Positions 7,374 through 56,120 of a stretch of 64,000 nucleotides of DNA are shown here, piece by piece. Below the pieces are notes generated by a model. The model saw only the letters and a program-made list of their open reading frames with translations, searched no databases and was not told where the DNA came from. Made by a program: the position numbers and the translations under genes. Source of the DNA: Actinomycetales bacterium (GTDB taxonomy: Bacteria; Actinomycetota; Actinomycetes; Actinomycetales; CAVURS01); assembly GCA_045807245.1 (NCBI GenBank), contig JBJMHS010000051.1, positions 6,044 to 70,043 on the forward strand, written 5' to 3'. How positions within the stretch are numbered: position 1 is the stretch's first letter; every line of letters starts with the position of its first letter.

Positions 7374-7387
7374 CGTGACACGCGGGC

Positions 7388-7418
7388 TCTCAGAAGCTTC
7401 TGAGAACGGACGCAGAAC
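7388..7418. promoter_or_regulatory. candidate operator: 18-bp perfect palindrome plus three 11-bp-phased nAGAAn repeats
   Basis: TCTCAGAAGCTTCTGAGA at 7388-7405 is a perfect palindrome. CAGAAG (7391), GAGAAC (7402) and CAGAAC (7413) are spaced exactly 11 bp apart. All lie in the 53-bp divergent gap between the RR gene (start 7373) and the flavocytochrome gene (start 7427). Confidence 0.4.
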
Positions 7419-7426
7419 GTCGAAGC

Positions 7427-14780: not shown

Positions 14781-14811
14781 AACCCGGCCGCCACCGGCCG
14801 GAGGAGCGCAG

Positions 14812-19682: not shown

Positions 19683-21386
19683 ATGTCCTCGGCAGCGTCG
19701 GCGGCACGGACGGTGCTCGACGCCATGCGCCAGGCGTGGGATGTCTCCCCGGCACTTGTCGTGCTCACCGAGGGCCCGGACCATCTGGTCGTCTATCAGA
19801 ACCCGGCGTCGGCCCGGTTGTTCGGGACGCGCCCCCTTGACCGGCCGATCGAGGCGTCGTTCCCCGAGCTGAGCGGGCGGGCCCGCGACACCTTGGACGT
19901 GGTCCTGTCCACCGGGCGGCCCGTCGAGCAACGGACGCCGGTGCCGGGTGTGCTCGGCGCCTCCGGCGAGGAGGTTCTGCTCACTTATGTGTTCGCGCCC
20001 ATCGGCCCTTCTGAGCAGGCACCTGCCGGCGTGTTGCTCACCGCCGTCGACATCACGGGGGAGGTTCTGACAGCGCGGGCCGCTGAGCAGTCCGCGTTGC
20101 TGGCCGTTCTGTCGGAGCAGATGAACGCGGCATCGGACCCGGCAGAGGCGCTGCACGAGATGACCCGGGCCCTGGTGCCCGCCCTCGCGGACCTGGCAGC
20201 GGTGTTCGTGTTCCCCGGCCGCGACGTGGAGTGGGGACTCGCCATGGGCGCGGCCCCCCGCCGCGGCGGACGACCGCACGCGATGACGATCAGCCCCGAG
20301 CTGCTCGAAGCCGTCGGGATGCCACCCGAGACCGAGCCGAACACCGAGCCCTCGCCGTGGGACGCGACGCTGGCGCAGGGGCACGCGGTGCTCATCGACG
20401 TCGAGGGCGGCCAGCTGGCCGCGGCAAGCAACGACGCCGGGCGGGCCTGGCTCCATAAGGCCGACTCGCACAACCTCGTCGTGCTGCCTCTGGCCCTGGC
20501 CGGCCAGCTGGCCGGCGTGGTGCTGCTGCTGGCGGCGGGCGCGCGGCCGCCGTACCGGCGCGAGGACCTGCCGTTCCTCGAGCTGGTGGCCGCTCGCGCG
20601 GGCGCAGCCGTCAGCCACCTGCGGGCCTTCCGCCATCAAGGACAGGTCGCGCTCGACCTGCAGCACGCGCTGCTGCCCCAAACCCCGACCGGGCTCAGCG
20701 GGCTCGACGTGGCTGCCCGGTACATCGCCGGGAGCGCCGACGTCGAGATCGGTGGGGACTGGTGGGACGTGCACCAGATCACGCCCGGCGTCACGGGTGT
20801 CGGCCTCGGCGACGTGTCGGGACGCGGCATCCAGGCCGCCATCGTCATGGGCCAGGCCCGCGCGGCGATGCGCGCCGCCGCGCTGGCCGGGCTGTCTCCC
20901 GGGGCTGTGCTCGCACTGCTGGACCGGCAGCTGGCCGAGGTCTTCGACGTCCCGATGGGCGGGACCGGACCGGTGCAGCCGCGGTTCGCGACGGCCGTCT
21001 ACGCCACCGTCGACACCACTGCTGAGACCCTGACCGTGGCCAACGCCGGGCACCCACCCCTGGTCGTGCGCTACCCCGACGGTGAGGTGGCGCGGGTCAG
21101 CGCGCCTCCCGGGCCGCCGATCGGGCTCGGCCTGCCTCAGTACGACGAGCTCGTCGTTCCGTTCCCGGCCGGAACCATAGTGCTCGGCTGCACCGACGGG
21201 CTGATCGAGACGCGATCGGCCTCATTGGGCGAGGGGCTCGACCGGCTGGAGCGGTTCGTGACCACGCTCGAGCCGTCCGGCGACATCGAGGGCGTCGCCG
21301 ACCAGGCGCTGGCCTGGATGTCGAACGACGGTGCGGCCGACGACGACATCGCCCTGGTCGTCCTGCGCAGCCACCCGACGGCCTGA
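19683..21386 (+). CDS. PAS-GAF-PP2C (SpoIIE-type) serine phosphatase
   Basis: 567 aa. PAS-like N-terminus, GAF-like middle, and a C-terminal SpoIIE domain with GGDWWDV, GDVSGRGIQAAIVMGQ and TDGLIE. Confidence 0.85.
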   Translation: MSSAASAARTVLDAMRQAWDVSPALVVLTEGPDHLVVYQNPASARLFGTRPLDRPIEASFPELSGRARDTLDVVLSTGRPVEQRTPVPGVLGASGEEVLLTYVFAPIGPSEQAPAGVLLTAVDITGEVLTARAAEQSALLAVLSEQMNAASDPAEALHEMTRALVPALADLAAVFVFPGRDVEWGLAMGAAPRRGGRPHAMTISPELLEAVGMPPETEPNTEPSPWDATLAQGHAVLIDVEGGQLAAASNDAGRAWLHKADSHNLVVLPLALAGQLAGVVLLLAAGARPPYRREDLPFLELVAARAGAAVSHLRAFRHQGQVALDLQHALLPQTPTGLSGLDVAARYIAGSADVEIGGDWWDVHQITPGVTGVGLGDVSGRGIQAAIVMGQARAAMRAAALAGLSPGAVLALLDRQLAEVFDVPMGGTGPVQPRFATAVYATVDTTAETLTVANAGHPPLVVRYPDGEVARVSAPPGPPIGLGLPQYDELVVPFPAGTIVLGCTDGLIETRSASLGEGLDRLERFVTTLEPSGDIEGVADQALAWMSNDGAADDDIALVVLRSHPTA

Positions 21387-21436: not shown

Positions 21437-21557
21437 ACATCGCCCGGCAACGAGCGCGACTTCGGCCGAACTGCCTCCGCCGGCCACCGCCGCGGCCCTA
21501 CCTTCGCCACAGGCGCGGGTGTCGCGCGGTGTCGGGGACTTCAGCTCGGAGTGGTCG

Positions 21558-23636
21558 ATGAACAGTCGTCGTCGTGGTGTCGCCGTGCTCTGCGCATGCG
21601 CAAGCGCAGCCTTGATCGCGGCCGGGCTGTCGGGCGGCTCGGCCGTCGCGGCCAGCGGACCGAGCAGCGCACACACCCAGCTGGTCTCTTCCGTGCCCTC
21701 AGCGGTGACACCGCAGTTCACGGACGGCGTGGTGCTCGCCTTGGCTCAGGTCGGCAACACGGTGGTGGCCGGCGGCAGCTTCACCTCGATGACCGCGGCC
21801 AGCGGTGGCGCGACGTTGACCCGCAACCGGATTGCAGCGTTCGACGCGACGACCGGGGCGATCAGTACGACGTTCGCGCCGAACCTGAACGGCAACGTCG
21901 AGGCCCTGCTGCCCGGGCCTGTCGCCGGAACGGTCTATGTCGCAGGCGACTTCACGACCATCGGTGGTACGACCGTGCCGCAGCTCGCGCTGTTGCGAGT
22001 CAGCGACGGGAGCCGGGTCACGACCTTCGCGCCGGCCGCGATCAAGGGCGGCGTCCTCACGATGGCCCTGAGCCGGGGCCAGCTGTTCATCGGTGGCGGC
22101 TTCACGAAGATCGGCACGGCTACCCGGGGCGGACTGGCCTCGCTCGACCCGACGACGGGCGCGGTGACGGCGTTCGTCACCACCGGTGTCAGCGGCCACC
22201 ACAACTACGGCAACGTGTCGGACGCCGAGCTCCAGGCGCTGCCGCCCTTCCCAGGCTGGACGCCGACGGTCGCTAAGGGCCGGACGAGCGTGCAGCGCCT
22301 CGCGGTCAACCCGCAGGGCACCCGGATGATCGTGATCGGCAACTTCGACAAGGTCGGAGGCGTCCCGCACGACCAGGCCGCGATGTTCAACGTCTCCCCC
22401 TCGGCGGCGACGCTGGACCCGAACTGGGCCACGATGGCCTTCCACGAGGCCTGCTTCTGGTTCGTCTTCGACGGCTACATGCGGGACGTGGACTTCTCGC
22501 CGGACGGGAACTTCTTCGACATCGCCACGGCCGGCGGCCACGACCTCCTGCTGCCTGAGGCAGCCGTTCGCTGCGACACGGTGACCCGCTGGGCCGCGAA
22601 CGGTTCCGGCTCGGACGTTCAACCCCTCTGGGTGGCGAGCTCCGGCAGCGACAGCTTCTTCGGTGTCGCCGACACGGGTGTCGCGGTGTACGGCGTGGGC
22701 CACCCGCGCTGGATGAACAACCCGCTGGCGAGCGACATGGCCGGACCCGGCGCCGTCGCCCGCCCCAGCCTGGTGGCGCTCGACCCGGTCAACGGCATGC
22801 CGCTGGCCTGGAACCCGGGGCGCGAACCACGCGGTGATGGCGTGATGGCCGTCCTGGCGACCAACACGGGGCTCTGGCTGGGCTACGACACCAAGTTCAT
22901 GGGCAACCGCGAGTACACCCGGCAGCGCCTGGCCTTCCTGCCTCTGGCCGGCGGCTACACGCCGGCGTCGGTGACCACGGCGACCCTGCCGGCGACGCTC
23001 TACCTCGGCTCCGGGCCATCGCTGCAGTCCCGTGGGTTCGACGGTACGACGGCCGGTTCGGCCACCTCACGCACGTCACCGATGGACTGGACGACTGTCC
23101 GCGGGGCGGTCCTGATCGGCAGTCAGTTGTTCTATGGCAAGTCTGACCAGATGCTCTACGCACGCACGTTCGACGGCACGTCGTTCGGCGCCGAGCGGAC
23201 CGTCAACCCGTACAGCGACCCCAAGTGGGACAACGTCGTCGATGCCGGTCGCGGAACCAACGGGACCATCACGCTCAAGGGTGTGCAGCCGGACTTCTAC
23301 GCCCAGCTGCCGAACGTGACCTCGATGGCCTTCAGCTCCTCGACCGAGCGGCTGTACTACACGTTGGCCGGTGACCCGACGCTGTACTGGCGCGCGTTCA
23401 GCCCGGACAGCGGCGTGCTCTACCCGATCGCGCAGACGGTCGCGGGCGTCTCGATGGCGGACACCACCGGCATGTTCATCAGCGGTTCGACGCTGTGGTT
23501 CGCCAGCGGCTCCACGGGAGCGCTGAGCTCGGTCGGCCTGACCGCCGGCGGGTTCAACGGCTCACCGGCTGCGGTCAGCGGCCCGAGCATCGACGGGGTG
23601 AACTGGTCCGGCGCGACGCTGTTCGCCGGGCCATAG
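21558..23636 (+). CDS. large secreted beta-propeller-repeat protein
   Basis: Signal peptide MNSRRRGVAVLCACASAALIAAGLSGGSAVAA. Repeated motifs of the type VYVAGDFTTIGG / LFIGGGFTKIGT...LASLDPTTGAV are typical of propeller blades. 692 aa from ATG 21558. Confidence 0.7.
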   Translation: MNSRRRGVAVLCACASAALIAAGLSGGSAVAASGPSSAHTQLVSSVPSAVTPQFTDGVVLALAQVGNTVVAGGSFTSMTAASGGATLTRNRIAAFDATTGAISTTFAPNLNGNVEALLPGPVAGTVYVAGDFTTIGGTTVPQLALLRVSDGSRVTTFAPAAIKGGVLTMALSRGQLFIGGGFTKIGTATRGGLASLDPTTGAVTAFVTTGVSGHHNYGNVSDAELQALPPFPGWTPTVAKGRTSVQRLAVNPQGTRMIVIGNFDKVGGVPHDQAAMFNVSPSAATLDPNWATMAFHEACFWFVFDGYMRDVDFSPDGNFFDIATAGGHDLLLPEAAVRCDTVTRWAANGSGSDVQPLWVASSGSDSFFGVADTGVAVYGVGHPRWMNNPLASDMAGPGAVARPSLVALDPVNGMPLAWNPGREPRGDGVMAVLATNTGLWLGYDTKFMGNREYTRQRLAFLPLAGGYTPASVTTATLPATLYLGSGPSLQSRGFDGTTAGSATSRTSPMDWTTVRGAVLIGSQLFYGKSDQMLYARTFDGTSFGAERTVNPYSDPKWDNVVDAGRGTNGTITLKGVQPDFYAQLPNVTSMAFSSSTERLYYTLAGDPTLYWRAFSPDSGVLYPIAQTVAGVSMADTTGMFISGSTLWFASGSTGALSSVGLTAGGFNGSPAAVSGPSIDGVNWSGATLFAGP

Positions 23637-24353: not shown

Positions 24354-25526
24354 ATGGCCGGGTCGACCCCAGAGACGCTGGATGTGCGATCTGCTCGACG
24401 GCTGTTCCCGGCCACGGGACGGCTGGCCTACCTCAACACGGCCGCAGTGGGGCTGGCCAGCGAGCGGTTGGCGCAGACCTACCACGACGTCGTGGACCGG
24501 TGGACGGGCGACGGCTTCGACTTCGTCACCGGCGAGGCGGCGGCGAACGCCGCGCGCGGCTCGGTCGCACGACTGATGGGCGCTGACAGCGACGACGTGG
24601 CGTTGATCCCGTCGGTATCGGCCGTGGCCGGACTCGTCGCCGCGCAGCTCGGCCCGGCCACGGCCGGACAGAACGTGGTCATCGGCGAGCGCGAGTACAG
24701 CTCCAACCACTTCCCCTGGCGGCTGCTGGCGACCAAGGGATACGACGTCCGGCAGGTGCCGTTCCGCGGCGGCGGCCTCGATCCGGACGACGTGGCGGAG
24801 CGCATCGACGACGGCACGCAGGTCGTCGCCTTCAGCGCCGTGCAGACGGCGACCGGTCACCGGTCGGACATCGCCGCCATCAGCAGGCGGGCGCGCGCCG
24901 TCGACGCGCTCGTCTTCGTTGACGGCTCGCAGATCGTGGGCGCGATGCCTGTGGCCGACGTGCTCGAACACCTCGACGTCCTCGCTGCGCCCGACCACAA
25001 GTTCCTGCTCAACGCCGGACGCGGCATGGGCTACTGCTACCTGTCGAGAACGGCACAGGACCGACTGACGCCGGTGGCCGCCGGGTGGCGGGCCGGCCGC
25101 GAGCCGCTCGCCAGCTTCTTCGGCCCCGAGATGGACCTGTCACCGACGGCGTCGCGTTTCGACAGCTCGATCAGCTGGCTGGCCGCGCTCGGCGAGCAGG
25201 CAGCGCTTTCGCTGTTCGACGAGCTCGGGGCATCGGCCATCTACGCGCGGAATGCGGAGCTGAGCGACCTGGCCCGGGCCGAGCTCACCCGGGCCGGTCG
25301 CCCGCCGGTCGACCTCGCCGCACCCAATCGCAGCACGATCGTCAGTGTCCCGTTGGGCGATACCGAGCCGGCGCCACTGCTGGCCATGCTCAGTGAGCGG
25401 TTCGGCGTCGTCTGCGCCGCCCGGGACGGCAACCTGCGCGTCGCGATCCACTTCTACAACGACGAGGACGACATCGAGCGCCTGGTCAGCGCCCTCGCAG
25501 CACCACGACCGTCCCCGACAACGTGA
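24354..25526 (+). CDS. class V aminotransferase-fold PLP enzyme (cysteine-desulfurase/SufS-like superfamily)
   Basis: 390 aa. AYLNTAAVGL start motif, and the segment LVFVDGSQIVGAMPVDV...LDVLAAPDHKFLL containing the PLP Lys region. Confidence 0.75.
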   Translation: MAGSTPETLDVRSARRLFPATGRLAYLNTAAVGLASERLAQTYHDVVDRWTGDGFDFVTGEAAANAARGSVARLMGADSDDVALIPSVSAVAGLVAAQLGPATAGQNVVIGEREYSSNHFPWRLLATKGYDVRQVPFRGGGLDPDDVAERIDDGTQVVAFSAVQTATGHRSDIAAISRRARAVDALVFVDGSQIVGAMPVADVLEHLDVLAAPDHKFLLNAGRGMGYCYLSRTAQDRLTPVAAGWRAGREPLASFFGPEMDLSPTASRFDSSISWLAALGEQAALSLFDELGASAIYARNAELSDLARAELTRAGRPPVDLAAPNRSTIVSVPLGDTEPAPLLAMLSERFGVVCAARDGNLRVAIHFYNDEDDIERLVSALAAPRPSPTT

Positions 25527-26451
25527 CGACGTAGGCCTTGTCGCCGACCAGCTCCACCGAGGTGGGTTGGTCCAGGCCGGTCGCGACCGGTGTCATCGTG
25601 CCGTCCGGCAGCACCTGCTCGAGCGCACCGGTGCCGGGGTCCGCGGGCGAGCCCTCGGGGTGGCCGGGTGTGAAGGTGCCTTGGGACAGTGCGAACAGCT
25701 TGCCGTGCCGGCCGGCCTCGACGTCCACCAGCAGCGGGGCACCCGACGCGACTGTGCGGCCGCTGCCGAACAGGCGCAGGATGCGGCCGTTCTCGGGCAG
25801 GTGCGGCACCGGACCGGCCTGCGCGACGTACACGTTCCCACCGCGCATGGCCAGACCGGTCGGAACCACGTCACCATAGGTCGCCACCTCGGTGATGCCG
25901 CCGTCCAACGTGACGTGAAGCACGCGGTTGTGATGTCCGTCGGTCACCAGGAACCCCCGCCCGTACGGCTGCATCGCGAACTGCACGCCGGTCGGGATGA
26001 AGAACGACGTCGTGGGCGGATGCGCGAGCGAGAAGGCACCGATGTCGGCCATCACCGTGACGTGGTGCGGCCCGTCGACGCGGTAGATGCCGTCGACAGA
26101 AGTGCCGCCGACGTCGGGGCTGACGAGCGACACCAGGACGTACGCCGTCTGGTCCAGGAAGGCGACGTCCATGGCGCCGCCGATCGGGGCGACCCGCTTG
26201 GGCAGCGCGTCCGTCACCGTGTCGCGCCGGCCGGTACGCCGGTCGACCCGGGTGACTCGTCCCGTGATCCCCTCGACGACGTAGAGCGCGCCGTCCGGGC
26301 CGATGGTGCTGCCCAGGGCACCCTCCAGACCGCTCACCAGGACATGCCGGTGCGGCTGCAGCGTGGTCGCGTCCGATGCGGGGGCGACGACGGCGGCTGA
26401 CCCGCCGGCCAGCGCGGCCGCGAACACTGCGCTCAGATATGTACGACGCAC
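25486..26451 (-). CDS. secreted beta-propeller protein (ScyD/ScyE- or NHL-like)
   Basis: Signal peptide MRRTYLSAVFAAALAGGSAAVVAPA. Blade-like repeats GPDGALYVVEG, GFLVTDGHHNRVLHV and GNVYVAQAG. The 3' end overlaps the convergent gene by 41 bp. Confidence 0.65.
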   Translation of the reverse strand: MRRTYLSAVFAAALAGGSAAVVAPASDATTLQPHRHVLVSGLEGALGSTIGPDGALYVVEGITGRVTRVDRRTGRRDTVTDALPKRVAPIGGAMDVAFLDQTAYVLVSLVSPDVGGTSVDGIYRVDGPHHVTVMADIGAFSLAHPPTTSFFIPTGVQFAMQPYGRGFLVTDGHHNRVLHVTLDGGITEVATYGDVVPTGLAMRGGNVYVAQAGPVPHLPENGRILRLFGSGRTVASGAPLLVDVEAGRHGKLFALSQGTFTPGHPEGSPADPGTGALEQVLPDGTMTPVATGLDQPTSVELVGDKAYVVTLSGTVVVLRGR

Positions 26452-26463
26452 GGCTCCTCCTCC

Positions 26464-26841
26464 TCAGCCGACCGGCTCGGCGCGCTCGACCGACGTGCCA
26501 TCACCGGCCACGATGTAGCCGAACCGCTTGCTCTGGCCGGACGACAGGGCGATGGTGCAGTTCGAGACCGAGGTGCCGGTCGACGGGATGCACCGGACCT
26601 TGGTGACCGTGACGCCCTGGGCGTAGTTGGCTCCCGTGGAGTCGGCGAGCATCTTGTTCCAGTCGTCGGTCACGTACTTCTCCAGCTCGCTGTTGATCCG
26701 TAGGTCGTGCGCCGGCTTGGTCTTCGAGGGTGTCGACGCGGCGGCGGCGGACGGCTTGTCCGAGCCTCCGCAGCCGACGGCGAGCGCCAGCGCGCCGACG
26801 GCAACCGGGGCGAGCAGGAGTCTGCGGGCGTTCATGGACAT
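26464..26841 (-). CDS. lipoprotein, unknown function
   Basis: Lipobox LALAVGCGG follows MSMNARRLLLAPVAVGA. GGAGG lies upstream. The start is 26841 or 26835. Confidence 0.7.
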   Translation of the reverse strand: MSMNARRLLLAPVAVGALALAVGCGGSDKPSAAAASTPSKTKPAHDLRINSELEKYVTDDWNKMLADSTGANYAQGVTVTKVRCIPSTGTSVSNCTIALSSGQSKRFGYIVAGDGTSVERAEPVG

Positions 26842-26919
26842 CAACCTCCATGGCGTGAGTGCTGGCCAGAGCAGGGTCTTGGGCGTCCCCATGGCTACGC
26901 GCCCAGCCTCGAAACGGCC

Positions 26920-26964
26920 TTGCAAACGACTTGCACGCGCTCGGCCCGGGCTGGGCTAGCGTGG
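26920..26964 (+). promoter_or_regulatory. second Nur-box-like element plus shared CTAGCGTG -10-like motif
   Basis: TTGCAA-ACGAC-TTGCAC at 26920-26936, and CTAGCGTG at 26956-26963 (TAGCGT at 26957-26962). GGGAGG RBS at 26979-26985 precedes TTG 26991. The same motif pair occurs at 14741-14781. Confidence 0.45.
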
Positions 26965-26990
26965 GGCCAGCCCGGCGGCGGGAGGTCCCC

Positions 26991-29900
26991 TTGGCGCTGG
27001 AGACCGGTCAACGGCAGCCCCTGGAGCTCTGCGTCCTCGGCGCACTCGAGGTGCGGCGCGGCGGCACGCCCCTAGCGCTCGGCGGAGCGCAGCAGCGCGC
27101 CGTTCTCGCCGTGCTCCTGGCCGAGGCCGGCACGACGGTCTCCCTCGACCGCGTCGCCGACACCCTCTGGGGCGAGCACCCCCCCGCCGGCTTCGTCACG
27201 AGCATCCAGACCTACGTGTTCCGGCTCCGCGAGCTGCTCGAACCGGGCCGAGCTCGTGGCGCTCCCGCCCGGCTCCTCGTCACCGAACCCGGTGGCTACC
27301 GGCTCCACCTGGACGGGCAGCTGCTGGACGCCGCCCAGTTCCGGCTGCTCGCAGCCGCCGGAGCAACCGCGCTGGACAGCGGCGACCCGGCGGAGGCTCG
27401 GCGCCTGCTCGACCGCGCGCTCGCCCTCTGGCGCGGCGACGTGCTGGCCGACCTCGAGAAGTTCGAGTTCGTCGAGCCGTACGCCGCGCAGCTGGACGAG
27501 CTCCGGCTGGCGGCTCTGGAGCACCGGATCGAGGCCGAGCTGGCTCTCGGTCATCACGCTGCCGTCCTGCCCGAGCTGCGCCATCTGGTGTCCCAGCACC
27601 CACTGCGCGAGGGTCTGCGGGCCGAGCTCATGCTGGCGCTGTACCGCGCGGGACGGCAGTCCGAGGCGCTCAGCGCCTACCAGAAGCTGCGCCACCTGCT
27701 GCGAGAGGAGCTCGGTGTGGACCCGGGCTCCCGGGTGGCGAACCTCCACCTGGCGATGCTCTCCCATGACCCGGCCCTCGACATCACTCCGACCCCCAGG
27801 CCCGCACAGCCACCCGCGCGGCCCCGCATGTCGCCGGGGCCGCCCACCGCGGACATCGTCACCGGCGGACGCCCCGCTCCGCCGCGCCGGCGGCGGCCAC
27901 GGCTTCTCATCACCGTCGTCGCCCTTGCCGCCGTGACGCTCGCAGGCACCACGGTTGCGGTACGGCTGCACGCGAAAACCGCTGCGGCAGTGGCGTTGCC
28001 GGCCAACAGCGTGGGCGAGATCTCCACCGACGGCATGGTGACCGCGGCCGTTCCGGTGGGAGCGAACCCGCTCGGCCTGAAGTACGGCGCGGGTTCGCTC
28101 TGGGTCGCGAACCGCAGCGACAACAGCGTCTGGCGGCTCGACCCCAAGGCCCGGACAGTCATCCAGCGGATCGGAGTTGGTCTGTCACCCGAGGCACTCG
28201 CCGTCACTCCGACCGATGTCTGGGTGGCCAACTCCGGCGGCGGCACGGTGAGCCGGATCAACGTCGAGTCGATGACGGTAACTCGGACCATCACGGTGGG
28301 AACGCAGCCCAAGGCCATCGCCGCCGGGCCGCACGACGTGTGGGTCGCGTTGAGCGGGGACGACACGGTCCGCCGGATCGACCCGGCCACCAACCTTGTC
28401 GATGACCCCATCCCGGTCGGGGGCGGCCCGGACGGCCTCGCGATGGACGGCACCACGCTCTGGGTCGCCAATGCGCGCGAAGCCACGGTGCTGCACATCG
28501 ACGGGCGGACCCGCGAAGAGGTGTCCAGCCCGGTCCACGTCGGCGCCGGCCCTCGCGAGCTGGTCGTGTCCGGCAACGACGTGTGGGTGGCAAACCAGCT
28601 GTCCACCAACGTGTCCCGGATCGACCGGACCACGTGGAGCAGCCACACGATCGAGGTGGGGGATGGCCCCGGTTTCCTCACGGCGACGCGGGACGGCATC
28701 TGGGTGAGCGCGGTCTACTCCGGCCGGATGACACGGATCGACCCGCGGACGGAACGCGTCACGGCATACCAGCTGCCGGAGTCGCCCCGCGGCGTGGCGA
28801 GCGACGGCCGGCGGGTGTGGGTCGCCGCGGGAGCGCTCGCGGACCGGTCGCACGTCGGCGGGACGTTGACGGTCGCGGCCGAGCGGCCCGCGGCCACCGA
28901 CGCCGGTATCGACCCGGCGACGGCGTACAACATGCCCGTCACCAACGCGGAGCGGCTCGTCTACAACGCCCTGGTCACCCTGGCGTACGGCAGTTTCGAC
29001 TCCCAGGTCCTCGTGCCGAACCTCGCGACCACGCTCCCCGAGCCCAGCGACGGCGGCCTGACCTACACGTTCACGTTGCGCCCAGACATCCGCTACTCCA
29101 ACGGCACCGCTCTGCGCGCTTCCGACTTCGTACTCGGGCTGCGCCGGGCGCTGACGTTGACCGGTGGCAACCCGGCCCTTTTCGCGCGGATCAAGGGCGC
29201 CCAGAACTGCATCGACCATCCGGGCGCCTGTGACCTGTCCCGAGGGGTCAGCACCGACGAGCGACAACGGCGCGTGACGTTCCACCTGGAGGTGCCGGAC
29301 CCGGAGTTCCTCTACAAGATCAGCAACTTCGTCTTCCCGTCACCGCCGGGCACGCCCTTGACCAAGGTGACGGCCGTGCCCATCCCGGGCACGGGGCCGT
29401 ACGTCCTGGCCAACGTGACCAAGGACCAGGTCTTCGAGCTCAGGCGCAACCCGTTCTTCCACCGGTGGTCGTCCGCCGCGCAGCCGGAGGGCTACCCCGA
29501 CGTCATCCGCTGGCTGGCGGTACCGAACACCCAAGCAGCGGTCGCTGCCGTGGACAGTGGTCGCGCCGACCTGGCCTGGCTCACCCCGCTGGGCGACCGT
29601 CGACACTCCGCCGAACTGATCGAGCGGCTGAGCGACGAGCACCCGACGCAGCTGCACAAGGACCTGCTGGCCGCCACCGGGTTCCTGTCGCTCAACGCAG
29701 CGACGGCCCCCTTCAACAACGTGCTGGCCCGGCGGGCCGTCAACTACGCGGTCGACCGCCGCATCCTGGTGAACCTCAACGGCGGCCCGCTTGTGGCGCA
29801 GCCGAACTGCCAGACGCTGCCTCCGGAGTTCCCCGGCCAGACGCCGTACTGTCCCTACACCTCAGGACCACAGGACGGCACGTACCACGGTCCGGACCTG

Positions 29901-30428
29901 GCCCAGGCGCGGCGTCTGGTGACGGCCTCGGGAACGAGGGGCGCGCACGTCACCATCTATTCGCTCGCCAACGACCTGGCGGCCTCGGACGAGGAGTACG
30001 TCGGTCAGGCGCTGCGCCGCCTGGGCTACCGGGTGACCGTCACGGAGCTGGCGAACACCGAGGCGAACGGCGACTGGATCTTCGACCCCACCCACCACGT
30101 CCAGGTGCTCTCCGGCGGGTGGATCGCCGACTATCCGTCACCGGCGAACTTCTACGGCGCGATCTACGCGTGCGGCGCCCCGGCGTACCCCAGTGAGTAC
30201 TGCAACCGAGCTCTCGACGCCAAGGCGGCGGCCGCTCTGTCGCTGGAGACCAGCCGCCCGGCAGAGGCGCTCGCTCGCTGGGGAGAGATCGACCACGCGC
30301 TCACCCGCGACGCGGTGGGCCTGTTCACCACGACGACGTTGGACTGGTACTACACGTCTCGCCGGGCGCTGAACTTCCAGGGCAGCCAGATCTTCGGTCC
30401 CGCACTGAGCCAGATCTGGGTGCGCTAG
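26991..30428 (+). CDS. membrane-tethered SARP/BTAD transcriptional regulator fused to a 7-bladed beta-propeller and a family-5 solute-binding-protein domain
   Basis: wHTH + BTAD region (LELCVLGALEVRRGG, LWRGDVLADL, ALYRAGRQSEALSAYQKLRHLLREELGVDPG). Then RRRRPR followed by TM helix LLITVVALAAVTLAGTTVAV. Then seven repeats ending in xWVAN-like strings. Then an SBP_bac_5-like region (GGTLTVAAE, LVYNALVTL, TYTFTLRPDIRYSNG). TTG start with GGAGG 5 nt upstream. Confidence 0.8.
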   Translation: MALETGQRQPLELCVLGALEVRRGGTPLALGGAQQRAVLAVLLAEAGTTVSLDRVADTLWGEHPPAGFVTSIQTYVFRLRELLEPGRARGAPARLLVTEPGGYRLHLDGQLLDAAQFRLLAAAGATALDSGDPAEARRLLDRALALWRGDVLADLEKFEFVEPYAAQLDELRLAALEHRIEAELALGHHAAVLPELRHLVSQHPLREGLRAELMLALYRAGRQSEALSAYQKLRHLLREELGVDPGSRVANLHLAMLSHDPALDITPTPRPAQPPARPRMSPGPPTADIVTGGRPAPPRRRRPRLLITVVALAAVTLAGTTVAVRLHAKTAAAVALPANSVGEISTDGMVTAAVPVGANPLGLKYGAGSLWVANRSDNSVWRLDPKARTVIQRIGVGLSPEALAVTPTDVWVANSGGGTVSRINVESMTVTRTITVGTQPKAIAAGPHDVWVALSGDDTVRRIDPATNLVDDPIPVGGGPDGLAMDGTTLWVANAREATVLHIDGRTREEVSSPVHVGAGPRELVVSGNDVWVANQLSTNVSRIDRTTWSSHTIEVGDGPGFLTATRDGIWVSAVYSGRMTRIDPRTERVTAYQLPESPRGVASDGRRVWVAAGALADRSHVGGTLTVAAERPAATDAGIDPATAYNMPVTNAERLVYNALVTLAYGSFDSQVLVPNLATTLPEPSDGGLTYTFTLRPDIRYSNGTALRASDFVLGLRRALTLTGGNPALFARIKGAQNCIDHPGACDLSRGVSTDERQRRVTFHLEVPDPEFLYKISNFVFPSPPGTPLTKVTAVPIPGTGPYVLANVTKDQVFELRRNPFFHRWSSAAQPEGYPDVIRWLAVPNTQAAVAAVDSGRADLAWLTPLGDRRHSAELIERLSDEHPTQLHKDLLAATGFLSLNAATAPFNNVLARRAVNYAVDRRILVNLNGGPLVAQPNCQTLPPEFPGQTPYCPYTSGPQDGTYHGPDLAQARRLVTASGTRGAHVTIYSLANDLAASDEEYVGQALRRLGYRVTVTELANTEANGDWIFDPTHHVQVLSGGWIADYPSPANFYGAIYACGAPAYPSEYCNRALDAKAAAALSLETSRPAEALARWGEIDHALTRDAVGLFTTTTLDWYYTSRRALNFQGSQIFGPALSQIWVR

Positions 30429-30523: not shown

Positions 30524-31174
30524 TCAGCTCTTCTGGTGCGTGGGGCCCGCCAGGACCACCTGGCCTGAGGAGGCCTGCTGGCCGTTCGCTACCTGTCGGG
30601 TCACGGTCAACGTCGGGTAGTTGGCTGGGGAGACACCCGACCACAGCGTGACGTCGTCGCCTTGGTTGAACGTCCCGATCGGCACCAGCTGGCCCTGCGC
30701 GTTCTTGAGCCAGGCCTCGTAGTACTCGCCGCCGTCACGTCGCGGCAGTCCCTTGGCGTGCAACGTGATCCGCCATCCGCTCGTGGTCTTGGTGAGTGTC
30801 ACCTCGCCCGACGCGCTCGGCGCGAGCCGCGTCCCGTTGAGCGACGCGGCGAACTGGACGGGCTGTCCACCGCGGTTGAGCGAGATGGCGAGCGCGACGG
30901 CGACCACGGCAGCCGCGGCGACGGCCGACACGGCGTACCGGACCCAGCGCGGACGCAACAGAACGACCGGCGCGGCTGGCGCGACCGGCGCTTCCTCGCG
31001 GGCCGCCGCGGTGATCGCCGCGACGATCCGGTCCTCCAGGTCGGGGGCGGGCTCGGCCCACACGGCGGGGTCGTTCAGCGCGCTGCGCACGCGGTCGAGC
31101 TGCGCACGCTCGCTCTCCTCGATCCGTGCGTCCGGCTCCCCGGCCAGGTACGAGATGCGGTCGTCGTTGGTCAT
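30524..31174 (-). CDS. anti-sigma factor (RskA-like C-terminal domain), single TM
   Basis: TM VRYAVSAVAAAAVVAVALAISL. Extracytoplasmic part has YYEAWLKNAQGQLVPIGTF, typical of the anti-sigma-K C-terminus. ATGA overlap with the sigma gene. Confidence 0.75.
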   Translation of the reverse strand: MTNDDRISYLAGEPDARIEESERAQLDRVRSALNDPAVWAEPAPDLEDRIVAAITAAAREEAPVAPAAPVVLLRPRWVRYAVSAVAAAAVVAVALAISLNRGGQPVQFAASLNGTRLAPSASGEVTLTKTTSGWRITLHAKGLPRRDGGEYYEAWLKNAQGQLVPIGTFNQGDDVTLWSGVSPANYPTLTVTRQVANGQQASSGQVVLAGPTHQKS

Positions 31175-31755
31175 CGCGACCGCTCCTCGCCAGCCGATGT
31201 CGGCGAGCCCGTCAGGTCGATGTGCGGGGCCAGGTGGCCGAGCAGCCCGGCTAACCGGCGATGGGCCCGAAAACTGCGCGACTTGACGGTGCCGACGGGA
31301 ATCTCCAGCCGTTGGGCGATCTCGTTGTGGGTGAGCTCGTCGAAATGCTGCATGCGGATCAGCTTGCGATCCTCGTCCGGCAGCGCGTCGACCGCATGCC
31401 GGACCTCGGACACGTCGTAGATCTGCTCGACCGACGGCGGCATGGTAGTCAGCTCAGACTCCACGTCGTCGATATCCCGGGCGCCGAGGTGGCGCCGTTC
31501 GCGACGGTAGACGTCGATGGCCGTCCGGCGCGCGATGCTCGCCAGCCAGGCCGCCAGGGCGCGGGTGGGGTCGAAGGTCCCGGCCGCCCGCCAGGCCTGA
31601 AGGAACGCCTGCTGTGACGCGTCCTCGGCCAAGCCGCTGTTGCCGAGCACCTTGTAGGCCACGGAGTAGACCAGCGAGCCGTAGGCGCGGTAGACCGCAC
31701 GGGTCGCCTCTGGGTCGCCCGTGGCGAACCAGGCGGCCAGCTCGCCATCGTCCAT
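31171..31755 (-). CDS. ECF (sigma-70 family group IV) sigma factor
   Basis: Region 2 AEDASQQAFLQAWRAAGTFD and ARRTAIDVYRRERR. Region 4 LIRMQHFDELTHNEIAQRLEIPVGTVKSRSFRAHRRL. Start at MDDGELAAW (31755). Confidence 0.85.
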   Translation of the reverse strand: MDDGELAAWFATGDPEATRAVYRAYGSLVYSVAYKVLGNSGLAEDASQQAFLQAWRAAGTFDPTRALAAWLASIARRTAIDVYRRERRHLGARDIDDVESELTTMPPSVEQIYDVSEVRHAVDALPDEDRKLIRMQHFDELTHNEIAQRLEIPVGTVKSRSFRAHRRLAGLLGHLAPHIDLTGSPTSAGEERSR

Positions 31756-31917
31756 CGCGGCGATGCTAGACCCGCCGGGGCGCGCGGGTGCCTGGCTACC
31801 GATCGGTGCCCTCCTCGCGATGCCCTGGTCGCGTTCACTCCAGAGATACGGATGGACGGTCTCGTTCGGTTCGCCGCGGAGCACTAGCGTTGCTCGAGCG
31901 CCGCTCAGGGAGGTTCG

Positions 31918-35664: not shown

Positions 35665-35774
35665 GCAGCCGCCCTTCCTGTCGACGAACCTCGTGACCGT
35701 TTACAGGAGTGACCCGCTAGGCCAGGGTGGGGCCAGCCGCGCACGCATCGCAGGACTCACCGAGGGGTGCCACG

Positions 35775-38700
35775 ATGCCTGACCCACCGTCCCAGCTGAA
35801 GGCCACGCTGCTGCGCCCGGACGACCTGCTGAGCCTGGAGGTCACCGGAGTCAACGTCCGGCTCGACACGGCCGACCCGAAGGCCCCGGCCCTGGTCGTC
35901 GCCGACCAGCAGCAGGATGCCTTCCTGGTCGTGGGCCTTTCGCCCCAGACGACCTTCGAGCAGGCGTTCTTCGAGGGTTCCCCCACATCGCCCGAGCAGG
36001 TCCTCGGTCCGGGCGACCGGCCGCGGCCGGCGACGACCGACCTCACTCCGCCCACCGACCCGGGCCACCTGGCGTTCAAGCTCGGCGGCCCCAGCCGGCT
36101 GTCCTTCCGGATCCCTCCGGACGCCCGCATCCCCTACACGACCGAAGGCTTGCTGGACTGGTCGGCGTACACGCTCGTCGTCCCCCCGGTCGCCGACGTC
36201 CCGGCCGGAGCCGAGCCGCAGGGTCCGGCGCCGATCCGCGAGCCCTCGGCCACCGAAACCACGCTGCAGCTGCCGTTCCGGCTGCACCTCGCACCGACTC
36301 ACCAGGCGGCCTGGCAGCACTCACCCACCGCCGTGACGCACCGCGGGCGCACCGAGCTGTGGCACACCCGGCTGGCCGGCCTCGATGCGAACGGGACGCC
36401 GTACGACGTGGACGACCAGCACACGGTCGGGCTGCGCGTGGTCTGGTCGCCGGACTACGTCCCCGGGGCGCCGGTGCCGTCCCCCGCGGAGACCGGGCTT
36501 CCGGGCGCGCTCGCACCGATGTCCGTGGCCGACCGGCACCAGCTGGTCATCCTCACGTCGGCCTTCGACGGCTACGCGATCGACGAGTTCACCGGGTTCG
36601 TCCCCCAGCCGGTGCAGGCCAGCCTGGTCATGCTGTCCGCGCTCGGTGGGTGGCTCCGCTCGTACGGCGCCTGGACCCCGCCCGCGCAGGTCATCCCGCC
36701 GCGCTGGGGGCCCCTCGTCGACATCGGCGACATCCTGGAGGGCCGGTTGGACGACGCCGTCCAGGCTGTCCAGAAGGACGCCGTCCAGGTCGAGCCCGCG
36801 GCCCGGGTGGTCGCGCGCTCCCCGAACGCCCTCCGCGGCTCGCTCGACCCCCGGATCTTCGGCCTGCCGCTGTACGACGTGAACGAGGACGCGCGGCTCG
36901 ACCTGTCCCAGTGGGCGCACGTCGCTGCGCAGGGCCGGGACCACTACGTACGGCTGGTCTACGAAGGCAGGCTGGCCGACACCGGACACCGGGCCTCTTT
37001 GGTCAAGGTGACCGAGCGGCGGTTCGAGACCTCGCCCTCCGGCGACCCGACGGCGTACTTGCGGCAGTACTTCTACGTCGTCGTGAAGGAGCGCGAGCGG
37101 GTCTACGCGCCGGACGGGTCGACGCCGCGGGGGCGGGCCATGCCACTGCGCCACATCACCTTGACCACCATGGTGACGCCGCACATCGACTACCCGTACG
37201 ACCCGCCGTGCGCCATCACCGACCGCTCGTTCTGGGTCATGGTCGGCGGCGAGGACATGCTCTTCCACGGCACGACCGTGGGCGCCGACGGTCAGGTCCG
37301 CGACTTCGCCAAGCCGATGATCTTCGTACCCAACAGCGAGACCGAGTTCGGTGTCCTGCAGGGCTATGTCGGCACGGTCGAGAACAAGGCACGCCTCTCC
37401 GCCGCCGTTCCGGGGCAGGCCGTGGCCTTCGCCGACGCCGGCGGTGGCGACAACACGTCGTTCGTCACCCAGTCCTTCTCGCTGGCCAACCTCGGCGCGA
37501 CCCGCGACACGTTCTTCGAGCCGGTCCTGTTCTCGGCCGACGTGCGGATACCTGCAGCCGAGGCACTCACCGGCGCATCGTCGCCGACGAAGATCCGCAT
37601 GCTGCAACAGTTCGTGGACCAGGGGTTCGGTGACGCCGGCAACGCGACCGGTGCCTTCGCCGAGGTCGTCAAGCTGGTGAGTACGGCGGACAGCGCGCCG
37701 GCCGCTCTCACCGGCGCCGGCTCGGACGCGAAGTTCAACGCCGCCCAGTCCGGTGGCTTCGCGACCCCGCGGCTCGACCTCACGGTGCTGACCCGCGCCC
37801 ATGGCCCCCTGGGCGGACAGGTCGGCGACGCCCTCGGCGACGTCTTCCATCCGGCCGATGTGTTCCCCAAGGGAGTGGCGACGCTGTTCGGGGTCTTCGA
37901 CCTGGCCGACCTGCTGCCCACCGGGACGGTCGACGGCCAGGCGCCGAAGATGACGGTCGAGCGAGACGGCACCGCGATCGTGACCAAGCTCGACTGGGCC
38001 AGCCCGGTGGGGGACCTGCCGGCCGTCCTGGTGACGTTCCGCTCCCTCGGCACGACCCTGGACGTGCACGTCGAGCTGCGCAAGGAGCTCACCGGCGCCG
38101 GCTCGACCAGCGTCAACGGCACCCTGACCGCGTTCGACGTCGAGTTCCTCAGCTCGCTGATCGTGCACTTCACCTCGTTCGCGTTCGCCGCGCGCAGCGG
38201 GTCGAAGACCGACGTGAAGGTCGACCTCGACGCGGCCAGGCCGGTGGAGTTCGTCGGCGACCTGGCCTTCGTCGAAGGCCTGCGCAAGGTCATCCCGCCG
38301 GGCGTGTTCGGCGACGGCGTCAGCATCGACATCATCTCCAACCCGATCGGCATCAGGGCCGGGCTCGAGATCGGCCTTCCGCCCGCGACCGTGGGCATCT
38401 TCGCGCTCAAGAACATCTCCTTCTCCGCCGGGCTGACCGTGCCGTTCGTCGACGGCAAGCCGGTCGTGGAGTTCGGGTTCGCGCGGCGCGACGCGCAGTT
38501 CCTGCTCGCGGTCCTGATCTTCGGCGGCGGCGGCTTCTTCCACGTCGAGCTGGACACGGACGGCATCCGCAAGCTCGAGGCGGCGTTCGAGTTCGGGGCC
38601 ACGGCCGCGCTGGACATCGGCATCGCCAGCGGCGAGGTCCACGTCATGGCCGGCATCTACTTCGCGATGGAGAGGAAGGTGCTGCCCGACGTCGGCGAGC

Positions 38701-54367: not shown

Positions 54368-54369
54368 GG

Positions 54370-55986: not shown

Positions 55987-56120
55987 GTCACGGAACGTAA
56001 CACGTCTCCACCGCGATGGACGGCGGTTTGGCCCATTCGGGTCCTGCGTCGGCTTGGCACCGGCCGGCGCAGGCGCCTCATTACGGCTGTTGCTGGGGAC
56101 TCTCCTGCTCGGCGGTCTGG

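Follow-up and report, generated by a model that had tools for sequence, protein, structure and literature searches.

The 64-kb stretch of DNA analyzed here (hereafter the window) contains a gene coding for a protein of 1145 residues, which lies within a stop-to-stop ORF at positions 26859-30428 of the plus strand and has a GGGAGG ribosome-binding site at 26980-26985 ahead of its TTG start at 26991. The product matches the public protein MFL6100296.1 residue for residue over its full length, and the frame is unbroken with a uniform, coding-like GC3 of 0.89. Pfam and NCBIfam searches recovered hits above the curated thresholds and upheld the original prediction that a single ORF unites four parts. 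These are a DNA-binding domain of SARP type, a linker that is disordered and leads to one transmembrane (TM) helix, a seven-bladed propeller of YVTN repeats and a family-5 solute-binding (SBP) fold that is complete (Table 1). A divergent intergenic region of 155 bp separates the gene from a small lipoprotein gene and, beyond it, a gene for a ScyD/ScyE-family propeller protein (105 bits for NCBIfam NF033206, cut-off 80). Domain matches in the other neighbors, a Rax2/DUF5122 propeller, a PD40 propeller, an SGL-like protein and an ECF sigma factor with an RskA anti-sigma factor, likewise agree with the proposed setting among secreted propellers and an ECF sigma pair.

Table 1. Predicted features of the locus, ordered by position in the window
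Feature	Position	Strand	Basis or remarks
Divergent gene 2, secreted ScyD/ScyE-family propeller protein, 321 aa	25486..26451	-	Downstream of the lipoprotein gene, same strand
Divergent gene 1, small lipoprotein, ~123 aa, predicted direct target	26464..26835	-	MNARRLLL...AVGC lipobox; GGAGG 9 nt upstream
Conserved -10-like hexamer TAGCCA, toward the divergent lipoprotein gene	26892..26897	-	8-9 bp downstream of the last repeat; same block at the second site in locus L088
Predicted operator, three direct repeats, 11-bp period	26908..26940	.	Plus strand CTCGAA / CTTGCA / CTTGCA; minus strand TGCAAGT-N4-TGCAAGG-N4-TTCGAGG
Conserved TAGCGT, -10-like (TANNNT), for the regulator's own transcript	26957..26962	+	20-21 nt after the last repeat; followed by the GGGAGG RBS
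Whole gene, predicted membrane-anchored SARP regulator, 1145 aa	26991..30428	+	TTG start; stop included
OmpR-type winged-helix DNA-binding domain, residues ~11-105	27021..27305	+	Pfam, NCBIfam, AfsR alignment, AF2
BTAD, all-helical bacterial transcriptional activation domain, residues 112-262	27324..27776	+	Pfam, AfsR/EmbR match, AF2 helices
Pro/Arg-rich disordered tether ending in RRRRPR, residues 263-305	27777..27905	+	pLDDT, alignment, K+R enrichment
Single TM helix, residues 306-328	27906..27974	+	Kyte-Doolittle, AF2
Seven-bladed YVTN-type beta-propeller, residues 340-614	28008..28832	+	Pfam, NCBIfam, conserved Trp, 1l0q, AF2
Family-5 (cluster C) solute-binding fold, residues 621-1145, ~525 aa	28851..30425	+	Pfam, conservation, structure comparison

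The winged helix is recognized by the Pfam Trans_reg_C profile at residues 33-105 (28.4 bits, cut-off 26.2) and modeled by AF2 with a pLDDT of ~90, and the Pfam BTAD profile matches residues 112-256 with 157.9 bits. The NCBIfam profile for the AfsR N-terminal region extends over residues 5-282 (188 bits), and across the winged helix and BTAD both AfsR and EmbR are matched with E ~1e-46. By sequence, residues 1-262 constitute a genuine SARP domain with both of the modules that define the family. In the recognition helix T74 and R78 (nt 27210-27224) align with T88 and R92 of AfsR, which are its base-contact residues (PMC10936776). The link with antibiotic biosynthesis is a functional habit of SARPs and not a structural criterion; neither the Pfam-scanned ORFs of the window nor the related loci revealed a recognizable biosynthetic cluster of the PKS, NRPS or any other type.

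The tether that follows is poorly conserved in the alignment of homologs, and its pLDDT falls below 50 over residues 267-305. It leads into the only strongly hydrophobic segment of the protein, at residues 306-324 (~nt 27906-27962, against the 27901-27960 first given for the helix after the RRRRPR string), which has a Kyte-Doolittle 19-mer score of 2.25 and keeps its position in all 40 homologs compared; AF2 places the helix at residues 309-328. Each of the 40 homologs has a single TM helix, within 15 residues of which they carry ~4.7 K+R on the N-terminal side versus ~1.4 on the C-terminal side, a bias seen in all 40, and the six invariant cysteines in this set all fall in the SBP part, as the pairs 740/747, 940/954 and 1061/1071. 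Both features fit an N-in/C-out topology, in which, as the positive-inside rule had suggested from the outset, the DNA-binding end is predicted to be cytoplasmic and the propeller and SBP to lie outside.

The propeller region recovered the Pfam YNCE propeller (34.8 bits), the NCBIfam YVTN repeats (TIGR02276, 93 bits) and the structure 1l0q (E 3e-22). All seven of the WVAN-like strings originally noted are present, and their tryptophans (371, 411, 451, 491, 532, 571 and 610, ~40 aa apart) are invariant or nearly so in 40 homologs, while AF2 models 28 strands over this region, i.e. seven four-stranded blades of ~40 residues as in YVTN/YncE-type propellers. Membership of the virginiamycin B lyase family was considered but not supported, there being no match to PF24684 at E<=0.1 and a score of 21 bits for NF000022 against a cut-off of 600; a few homologs did exceed 50 bits in this comparison.

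The C-terminal part gave 160 bits with Pfam SBP_bac_5 at residues 674-1062, and Foldseek aligned ~510-550 positions with the structures 8upi, 4toz, 1b52 and 2wop (E ~1e-29 to 1e-32, TM-score 0.73-0.84 normalized to the target). The domain, first described as ~520 aa and SBP_bac_5-like, is thus a bilobed SBP_bac_5 fold alignable over its full length with solved cluster-C SBPs. The residue D1047, in a GWIADYP motif, is invariant and aligns with the Asp of the GWCADYNEP motif of OppA. In OppA this Asp binds the N-terminus of the peptide. Its invariance suggests that the ligand is probably peptide-like with a free amino group. On the other hand, Arg413 of OppA is not conserved, being a Ser in the 1145-residue protein, and the ligands known for family-5 SBPs include sugars, metals, opines and AI-2 as well, so that the ligand class could go beyond peptides; accordingly, a peptide-like ligand is best regarded as a possible one.

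The collinear SARP-TM-propeller-SBP5 architecture was found in at least 120 full-length homologs with 43-76% identity. When proteins are clustered at 50% identity, it is shared by more than 100 clusters from across Actinomycetota; among the best 150 representatives at this level, ~105-110 are full length, and all score above 850 bits. These proteins form a large, unstudied actinobacterial family, for which a literature search recovered no relevant paper and no experimental data on any member. The SARP classes described so far are all cytoplasmic, but this exact architecture, earlier judged unusual, is itself common. The source of the window is a metagenome-assembled genome (MAG), and frameshifts do occur in some related long-read MAG loci (L005, L007, L056), which could raise the suspicion that an assembly or frameshift artifact fused a SARP gene to an SBP gene. 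Given the uninterrupted frame, the uniform GC3 and more than 100 independent collinear homologs, including those from isolate genomes of Nocardioides and Streptomyces, the probability of such an artifact is negligible, and the comparative data rule out a joining of two genes of this kind. In public databases members of the family are automatically annotated as 'ABC transporter substrate-binding protein'.

Orthologs of the divergent lipoprotein, 56-68% identical, occupy the same position in the related loci L087, L088 and L089, and a ScyD/ScyE-family protein with 60% identity to that of the window is encoded divergently from the homolog in Nocardioides sp. URHA0032. Across the clade the family of the divergent gene varies (ScyE-like, BNR/sortilin-like, small lipoproteins and others), and a signal-peptide-like start is present in 14 of 18 loci as against 25% of control ORFs. 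An exact CTTGCA-N5-CTTGCA occurs just once in the 64 kb, in the intergenic region, and the repeats of which it is part are kept in L087, L088 and L089 while their flanks diverge. In L088 the repeats recur, together with the same downstream TAGCCATGG block, before a second secreted-protein gene, at a site without a regulator gene on the other side. Among full-length loci, period-11 triple repeats reach an empirical tail of <=0.11 in 14 of 18, the same tail being reached in 4 of 72 locus-period tests for the control periods 9, 10, 12 and 13; the trend is the same, if weaker, in 34 metagenome loci, and clear repeats were not seen in about a quarter of the full-length loci (L001, L007, L086).

SARP promoters typically display direct repeats 11 or 22 bp apart, with the 3' repeat ~8 bp from the -10 element (PMC10936776), and the layout of the candidate operator on the divergent strand appears canonical by this rule. 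The predicted operator further resembles SARP promoters in its tandem arrangement, 11-bp period and weak -10 element, the minus-strand hexamer variants TAGCCA, TAGGCA and TAACAA all lacking the usual final T. The sequence of the predicted repeats covaries with residue 78 of the recognition helix: phased TTGCA pairs are found only in loci with R or K at this position (9 loci, 6 lineages) and phased TTGGA pairs only in those with H (8 of 15), R thus going with TTGCA and H with TTGGA. It could be argued that the repeats serve autoregulation alone, possibly repression, with the real regulon elsewhere in the genome and not in the divergent secreted-protein genes, because their orientation relative to the regulator gene is constant in nearly all loci, the regulator's strand has a well-formed TAGCGT downstream of them and the divergent gene families differ between clades. 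However, on this strand the distance between the repeats and TAGCGT exceeds that of the canonical 8-bp rule by one turn of the helix, whereas the divergent strand conforms to the rule; moreover, the second block in L088 faces another secreted-protein gene with no regulator opposite, and the divergent neighbors are strongly enriched for exported proteins, all of which renders a purely autoregulatory role very unlikely.

The distribution of the ectodomain offers further clues. The same TM-propeller-SBP5 unit is fused to class III cyclases (Guanylate_cyc; P0238, P0245 and ~15 others), to a Ser/Thr kinase (Pkinase; P0252) and, in P0149, to a SARP-cyclase combination, while SARP-TM proteins are also found with Peripla_BP_6, Peripla_BP_4 or Bmp ectodomains. 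This swapping among SARP, cyclase and kinase outputs lends independent support to a sensor role of the unit, and the fusion to class III cyclases and a Hanks kinase, which are other dimerization-dependent outputs, points to a reversible, dimerization-type signal rather than to release of the output domain.

Two further interpretations need to be weighed against ligand sensing by the fused ectodomain. The SBP might still feed an Opp/Dpp-type importer encoded elsewhere, as a dual-use or purely transport receptor, in which case the TM helix would replace the lipid anchor usual in Gram-positive SBPs and the SARP domain would report transporter traffic or be secondary. The complete fold, most similar to the genuine transport receptors 8upi, MppA, OppA and OppA2, would suit such a role, the free family-5 SBPs DppA and CBP are known in both transport and signaling (PMC8050422), and our view of the genome covers 64 kb. 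The SBP is not exported by an N-terminal signal peptide or lipobox, as it begins after the TM helix and propeller. Yet transport receptors do not have a rigid propeller that separates the SBP from the membrane. No Opp/Dpp-type permease (BPD_transp_1) was detected in any scanned ORF of the window or beside six homologs, nor is the gene coupled to those of an ABC permease and ATPase of the Opp/Dpp/Nik type in these loci (0 of 7 independent loci). This extends the earlier observation that such genes are not adjacent, and the orphan status together with the swapping of the ectodomain onto signaling outputs supports the proposal that the SBP was recruited as a sensor; a transport function is correspondingly improbable.

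Alternatively, the ectodomain might bind a protein or cell-wall partner, or report its folding or disulfide status, in place of sensing a small ligand, and cleavage in the tether or TM helix would then free the SARP domain as in CadC, for which proteolytic activation is described (PMC11484849). The long, disordered and poorly conserved Pro-rich tether could accommodate cleavage, the three conserved Cys pairs could report redox state, and the ECF sigma/anti-sigma pair next door has a counterpart near the homolog in L083. However, no conserved protease gene lies near the regulator in the loci examined, the cyclase and kinase fusions favor a reversible signal of the dimerization type, and the ligand-contacting Asp of OppA is invariant. 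Consequently, we consider control by proteolysis or envelope state to be rather unlikely.

Ligand sensing without release is thus the preferred interpretation: with a probability of about 0.6, the 1145-residue protein is a single-pass, N-in/C-out, ToxR-like one-component transcription activator with a ligand-sensing ectodomain. The cytoplasmic SARP domain, hanging on its ~45-residue disordered tether, would bind side by side with its like to the three 11-bp-spaced TGCAAG-type repeats and, activating rather than repressing, would recruit RNA polymerase to the promoter of the divergent lipoprotein/ScyE-like propeller operon; the regulator probably also influences its own promoter. On the outer face the rigid propeller would carry the OppA/MppA-like Venus-flytrap domain, uncoupled from any transporter, and ligand binding might alter how the ectodomains are arranged or self-associate, and thereby the readiness of the cytoplasmic domains to assemble on the repeats.

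This organization is reminiscent of several known systems without coinciding with any of them. The SARP domain is shared with AfsR, ActII-ORF4, RedD and EmbR of M. tuberculosis, the AfsR residues T88/R92 being kept as T74/R78, but the described SARPs are soluble proteins of small, medium (NTPase) or large (NTPase and TPR) classes (PMC10936776, PMC12692060), whereas here there is a TM helix with a predicted extracytoplasmic sensor and the predicted targets are exported proteins. With the transmembrane transcription regulators (TTRs) ToxR, TcpP and CadC it has in common an OmpR-type winged helix, predicted to be cytoplasmic, one TM helix, a predicted C-terminal outer sensor and one-component logic, but it possesses an additional BTAD, its ectodomain is unrelated to those of ToxR and CadC, and no ToxS/TcpH-like partner is known. 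As it combines a DNA-binding domain with at least one TM region in one protein (PMC10269533), it is a TTR by definition only and not by sensor homology. The TTR census in the supplement of that paper counts 213 entries with a BTAD, which are not discussed there, and this tempers the idea that a membrane-spanning SARP is unusual; the SBP_bac_5 ectodomain is absent from the part of the census domain table that was covered. Another parallel is ChiS of Vibrio cholerae, a membrane-embedded DNA-binding regulator set by the periplasmic family-5 SBP CBP (PMC8050422). There, however, a hybrid histidine kinase is the regulator, and the SBP is a separate protein with an additional role in transport, whereas here the SBP is fused and the output is a SARP. 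Similarly, OppA, MppA and DppA share the cluster-C fold and the GW.ADYP motif with its ligand-amine-binding Asp, but not the propeller, TM helix and transcription factor fused N-terminally, nor the lack of a signal peptide or lipobox and of a cognate permease, nor the replacement of Arg413. Among actinobacteria, PknD is a receptor Ser/Thr kinase with an extracytoplasmic NHL beta-propeller. The solute-binding protein GlnH serves as sensor in the GlnH-GlnX-PknG pathway (PMC9769921). These pathways likewise signal via an extracytoplasmic propeller or SBP, and the kinase P0252 has the very ectodomain described here; in contrast to them, the predicted output is direct DNA binding rather than phosphorylation, and a single chain unites the propeller with the SBP.

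In broader terms, TM-propeller-SBP5 may constitute an unrecognized, widely used actinobacterial receptor module with interchangeable SARP, class III cyclase and Hanks kinase outputs, all acting via ligand-controlled self-association. The SARP version would then represent a fourth, membrane-bound SARP class that couples an external peptide-like cue (e.g. a cell-wall peptide or secreted signal peptide) to the expression of exported proteins without a kinase, its DNA specificity being readable from one recognition-helix residue (R78 for TTGCA, H78 for TTGGA). We offer this wider proposal tentatively, its chances being somewhat short of even.

SARPs are among the best-studied actinobacterial activators, but the signals controlling them are largely unknown; in this family, a SARP would be connected directly to the cell exterior. 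The proposed circuit is concrete, with a defined candidate operator, a possible specificity code of one residue and a target operon that is predicted. The current automatic annotation misdirects metabolic and transporter inventories, affecting more than 100 clusters (50% identity) across soil Actinomycetota. The ectodomain shared with cyclases and kinases provides natural chimeras for the study of Venus-flytrap signaling across a single TM helix, and could supply parts for ligand-responsive gene switches in Streptomyces.

The window is ~70% G+C and actinobacterial in character. Its regulator gene lies within a stop-to-stop ORF (26859-30428, plus strand) whose codon-position G+C of 0.72/0.53/0.89 is of the coding type. 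Its TTG start at 26991 stands 5 nt beyond the end of a GGGAGG element (26980-26985), and the single 1145-aa translation is identical to the public protein MFL6100296.1, named 'MAG: ABC transporter substrate-binding protein [Actinomycetales bacterium]'. Pfam mapping recovered the four-part layout of the original prediction, namely Trans_reg_C (residues 33-105), BTAD (112-256), a YNCE-type propeller and SBP_bac_5 (674-1062), and NCBIfam models matched the N-terminal region of AfsR at 188 bits and YVTN repeats at 93 bits. Sequence searches of the PDB returned AfsR and EmbR (E ~1e-46 each), the YVTN S-layer propeller 1l0q (3e-22) and the peptide-binding proteins 8upi and OppA2. An AlphaFold2 model derived from 40 homologues (pLDDT 86.8, pTM 0.69) is divided as listed in the table below, and Foldseek aligned its bilobed domain over ~510-550 positions with 8upi, MppA, OppA, OppA2 and DppA. 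All seven 'WVAN' strings are present in the translation, and the architecture as first observed is confirmed in every particular.

Features of the regulator, its surroundings and related loci (L-numbers denote related DNA loci; other nucleotide coordinates refer to the window)
Feature	Position	Strand	Remarks
SARP domain	residues 11-262		confident in AlphaFold2 model
Disordered stretch	residues 267-305		AlphaFold2 model
Helix	residues 309-328		AlphaFold2 model
Propeller, 28 strands	residues 340-614		AlphaFold2 model
Bilobed alpha/beta domain	residues 625-1145		AlphaFold2 model
PAS-GAF-SpoIIE (PP2C) phosphatase	19683-21383	+	
Rax2/DUF5122-type propeller	21519-23633		
Class-V aminotransferase			among the regulator's neighbours
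Secreted ScyD/ScyE-family propeller gene	25486-26451		downstream of lipoprotein gene; NF033206, 105 bits
Small lipoprotein gene	26464-26835	-	divergent from regulator
Hexamers CTCGAA/CTCGCA, CTTGCA, CTTGCA	26908-26940		11-bp period; conserved in alignment
TAGCGT	20-21 nt past repeats	regulator's strand	conserved in alignment
TGGCTA (minus strand: TAGCCA)	8-9 bp past third repeat, other side		conserved in alignment
RskA-type anti-sigma	30527-31174	-	downstream of regulator, convergent
ECF sigma (SigK-like)	31174-31800	-	downstream of regulator, convergent
Secreted PD40/TolB-like propeller protein, 339 aa	31918-32934	+	
SGL-like protein; PhoD phosphatase			regulator's neighbourhood
SARP-TM, propeller + Peripla_BP_6	L009 4670-7738		
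SARP-TM with Bmp/PnrA	L054 4499-6349		
SARP-TM with Peripla_BP_4	L064 5442-7304		

The architecture, described as unusual in the original prediction, proved to be common in a survey of its relatives. A word-indexed protein search returned at least 120 matches. Those listed are all 1000-1194 aa long with an identical Pfam set, share 43-76% identity with the query and in nearly every case cover 99-100% of it; their source organisms are Nocardioides, Streptomyces, Dermatophilaceae, Jatrophihabitantaceae and Pseudonocardiales. In an exhaustive profile search of 1.84 billion representatives clustered at 50% identity, every one of the best 150 matches scored >850 bits and ~105-110 of these were full-length in a single stretch. 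Together these counts define a large conserved family and not a rarity. The artificial joining of two genes by mis-assembly or a frameshift is ruled out by the intact ORF, its coding-type G+C and the many collinear homologues. The public labels ('ABC transporter substrate-binding protein', 'YVTN family beta-propeller protein', 'BTAD domain-containing putative transcriptional regulator') each cover one piece of the protein, and full-text literature searches found no paper on the SARP-TM-propeller-SBP5 architecture. The family is real, intact, widespread, uncharacterised and mis-annotated. When genome contigs were scanned with the full-length alignment, SARP-domain patterns were selected, ~70 of 80 loci being ordinary SARPs; metagenomes were then scanned using an alignment of the ectodomain alone. 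In three long-read MAG contigs (L005, L007 and L056) a full-length tblastn match coincides with an in-frame ORF ending after 174, 708 and 70 aa, respectively, and these broken ORFs probably reflect frameshift errors or pseudogenes. The Gammaproteobacteria label of L007 seems to stem from an actinobacterial contig having been binned wrongly.

Across the 40 aligned homologues the sole strongly hydrophobic 19-mer occupies a constant place (residues ~273-336), its sequence not being conserved. The 15 residues before this segment contain 2-8 Lys/Arg (mean ~4.7) and the 15 after it 0-4 (mean ~1.4). The SBP part possesses six invariant cysteines in three close pairs (740/747, 940/954 and 1061/1071), as would be expected of an exported domain. 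Both the charge bias and the cysteines agree with the predicted topology, in which the SARP domain would lie inside and the propeller and SBP outside.

The solute-binding domain is an orphan, as had been noted from the gene order: no ORF scanned in the 64-kb window encodes a binding-protein-dependent permease, and its single ABC ATPase is 29 kb off, beside a protein without a Pfam match. Nor does any Opp/Dpp-type importer adjoin the gene in six further loci whose genes had been called, namely those of Nocardioides sp. URHA0032 (homologue WP_028637252.1) and Streptomyces sp. NPDC057253 (homologue WP_383543346.1) and those on four metagenome contigs; two of the six have unrelated exporter-type ABC genes downstream in convergent orientation. 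The closest relatives of the SBP part are the peptide binders 8upi, MppA, OppA and OppA2, and its invariant D1047 (GWIADYP) aligns with the Asp of the OppA motif GWCADYNEP. In OppA structures this Asp forms a salt bridge with the alpha-amino group of the peptide. The position of OppA Arg413 is a Ser in the regulator. Since the ligands known for the family-5 proteins extend to oligosaccharides, nickel, haem, opines and AI-2 (PMC8050422), a peptide-like amine is only the best guess for the ligand.

Several other functional links were weighed. As the family-5 proteins include NikA, we considered a NicO-type high-affinity nickel/cobalt permease (14782-16098, plus strand, 335 bits) encoded 11 kb upstream, to which no link was found; NikA-like matches cover part of the SBP domain at 35-52 bits, and nickel sensing is unsupported. 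Catalysis by the propeller in the manner of virginiamycin B lyase was set aside, the likeness being at the fold level only. The setting among secreted propellers and an ECF sigma pair holds on the ORF scan. In L083 (2035-4166) a similar ECF sigma/RskA pair occurs at a distance of 6-8 kb from the homologue, and in L081 (21930-22934) a PD40 protein of 30% identity is encoded 8.5 kb beyond the Nocardioides homologue, on its downstream side. Each recurs in one other locus only and, in the window, lacks operator-like repeats upstream; neither is accepted as a conserved partner, and their proximity may be coincidental. Downstream of the PhoD gene are two huge consecutive plus-strand ORFs, one of 1087 aa (35727-38987, GC3 0.95) and the other of at least 1475 aa (~39002-43426, GC3 0.81); Pfam and NCBIfam gave no match at all for either. 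The window is also rich in other signalling genes (e.g. 52293-56283, minus strand). Two histidine kinases are among them, one of the hybrid type bearing two receiver domains, and others encode an ANTAR-GAF protein (1662-2465) and response regulators of the OmpR and LuxR types (6714-7589 and 61654-62526).

The four closest loci retain the divergent lipoprotein gene (122-129 aa) and, L088 excepted, a secreted propeller (ScyE-like or BNR/sortilin-like) after it. Alignment of their intergenic regions revealed islands of identity within otherwise diverged DNA, among them the three phased hexamers of the predicted operator. On the minus strand the window reads TGCAAGT-CGTT-TGCAAGG-CCGT-TTCGAGG-CTGGGCGCG-TAGCCA-TGG, and L088 contains a second copy of the whole block, TGCAAGC-CAGT-TGCAAGG-GAAC-TGCGAGC-CGAGCCGAG-TAGCCA-TGG. 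This second block (repeats and TAGCCATGG at L088 4961-4977, minus-strand reading 5000->4930) lies upstream of a gene for a 107-aa secreted protein (L088 4425-4748, minus strand) with no regulator gene opposite, which suggests a small regulon of exported proteins. As summarised in the structural study of AfsR, SARP promoters contain direct repeats 11 or 22 bp apart, and 8 bp separate the 3' repeat from the -10 element (PMC10936776). This spacing rule fits the strand of the divergent exported-protein genes but fails on the regulator's own strand, where the gap to TAGCGT is 20-21 nt (31 nt in L088) against the canonical 8 bp; canonical auto-activation is therefore not claimed. A scan of the flanks for consensus sigma-70 promoters and terminators found nothing.

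The exact motif with 12 specified bases occurs once in the window, and allowing up to two mismatches gave 4 occurrences against 1.7 expected, by itself not above chance, so that the significance of the operator lies in the exact match, conservation and covariation. At period 11 a simple three-copy score placed 14 of 18 full-length loci within the top 11% of same-size windows, and 11 of them within the top 3.5%, an equal tail being reached in 4 of 72 locus-period tests at control periods of 9, 10, 12 and 13. Enrichment persisted, in weaker form, in 34 more divergent metagenome loci, with 8 at <=0.1 for period 11 versus 0-3 at other periods. Across the family, the divergent neighbour within 500 nt begins with a signal-peptide-like stretch in 14 of 18 loci, compared with 25% of 334 control ORFs scored by an equally liberal criterion.

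In AfsR the base contacts are made by T88 and R92 (PMC10936776), which align with T74 and R78 in the recognition helix of the regulator. At position 78 the family has either R (or K) or H. Upstream TTGCA pairs in phase, one or two helical turns apart, are confined to R/K78 loci (9 loci of ~6 lineages: the window clade, L081, L083, L079, L046 and L108), and phased TTGGA pairs to H78 loci (8 of 15: L084, L085, L002, L005, L092, L096, L100 and L161). No locus crosses over between residue class and repeat type (Fisher's exact test ~3e-4 with the window clade collapsed to one lineage, otherwise not corrected for phylogeny). Loci with D/E73 tend toward CTCG(C/A)A repeats (L098, L104, L153); in L104, at ~-38 from the start of a SARP-TM-propeller-SBP5 gene, there is a perfect triple TGCTCGA of exact 11-bp period (score 14/14), and the recognition helix of its product has E73/R78. 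This hints at a second specificity position, pairing residue 73 with the third repeat base. The covariation is the strongest in-silico evidence that the SARP domain would be a working DNA-binding domain and the repeats its site.

Some 25 of the 150 top-scoring representatives match the TM-propeller-SBP part only and carry other N-termini. Pfam and motif inspection identified class III nucleotidyl-cyclase domains (FLFTDIEGST / FLIADVRGYT) in the representatives P0238, P0245 and ~15 more, each preceding an Arg-rich stretch and one TM helix; P0252 joins a Ser/Thr kinase domain to TM-propeller-SBP5, and P0149 a SARP-cyclase double fusion. On the outer side, SARP-TM proteins also bear other SBP classes (see table), and L007 encodes SARP-TM with a propeller alone, possibly through frameshift truncation. 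Membrane-anchored SARPs with SBP sensors are thus broader than the regulator family, and this two-way exchange of modules across one TM helix points to a receptor. Class III cyclases are active as dimers only, and receptor Hanks kinases are activated through dimerisation. SARP domains have to assemble side by side on DNA (PMC10936776). Given that self-association is common to all three outputs, we propose that the signalling step might be ligand-controlled self-association.

The regulator would work like the ToxR/CadC-type transmembrane transcription regulators (TTRs), an operationally defined class of which it is a member. By sequence and fold its DNA-binding half belongs to the SARP family, and its sensor half has the family-5 fold but lacks two usual traits of that family, a signal peptide and, in the loci scanned, a cognate permease. 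Functionally, its closest parallel is ChiS of V. cholerae, a DNA-binding regulator in the membrane under the control of the family-5 protein CBP, although there the SBP acts in trans (PMC8050422). Only small, medium and large classes, all of them cytoplasmic, are distinguished in the SARP literature (PMC10936776, PMC12692060). The TTR census counts 213 BTAD-containing TTRs in its supplement without discussing them, and the part of its domain table covered here has no SBP_bac_5 entry (PMC10269533). The original prediction is supported in its interpretation; the analysis adds to it a predicted operator with a candidate target operon, a specificity correlation that involves one residue, and evidence for the ectodomain as a shared receptor module. 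The regulator is built from known kinds, namely SARPs, ToxR-like one-component systems and SBP-based sensing, and is not a new category; to the general mechanism proposed for it we assign a probability of about 0.6.
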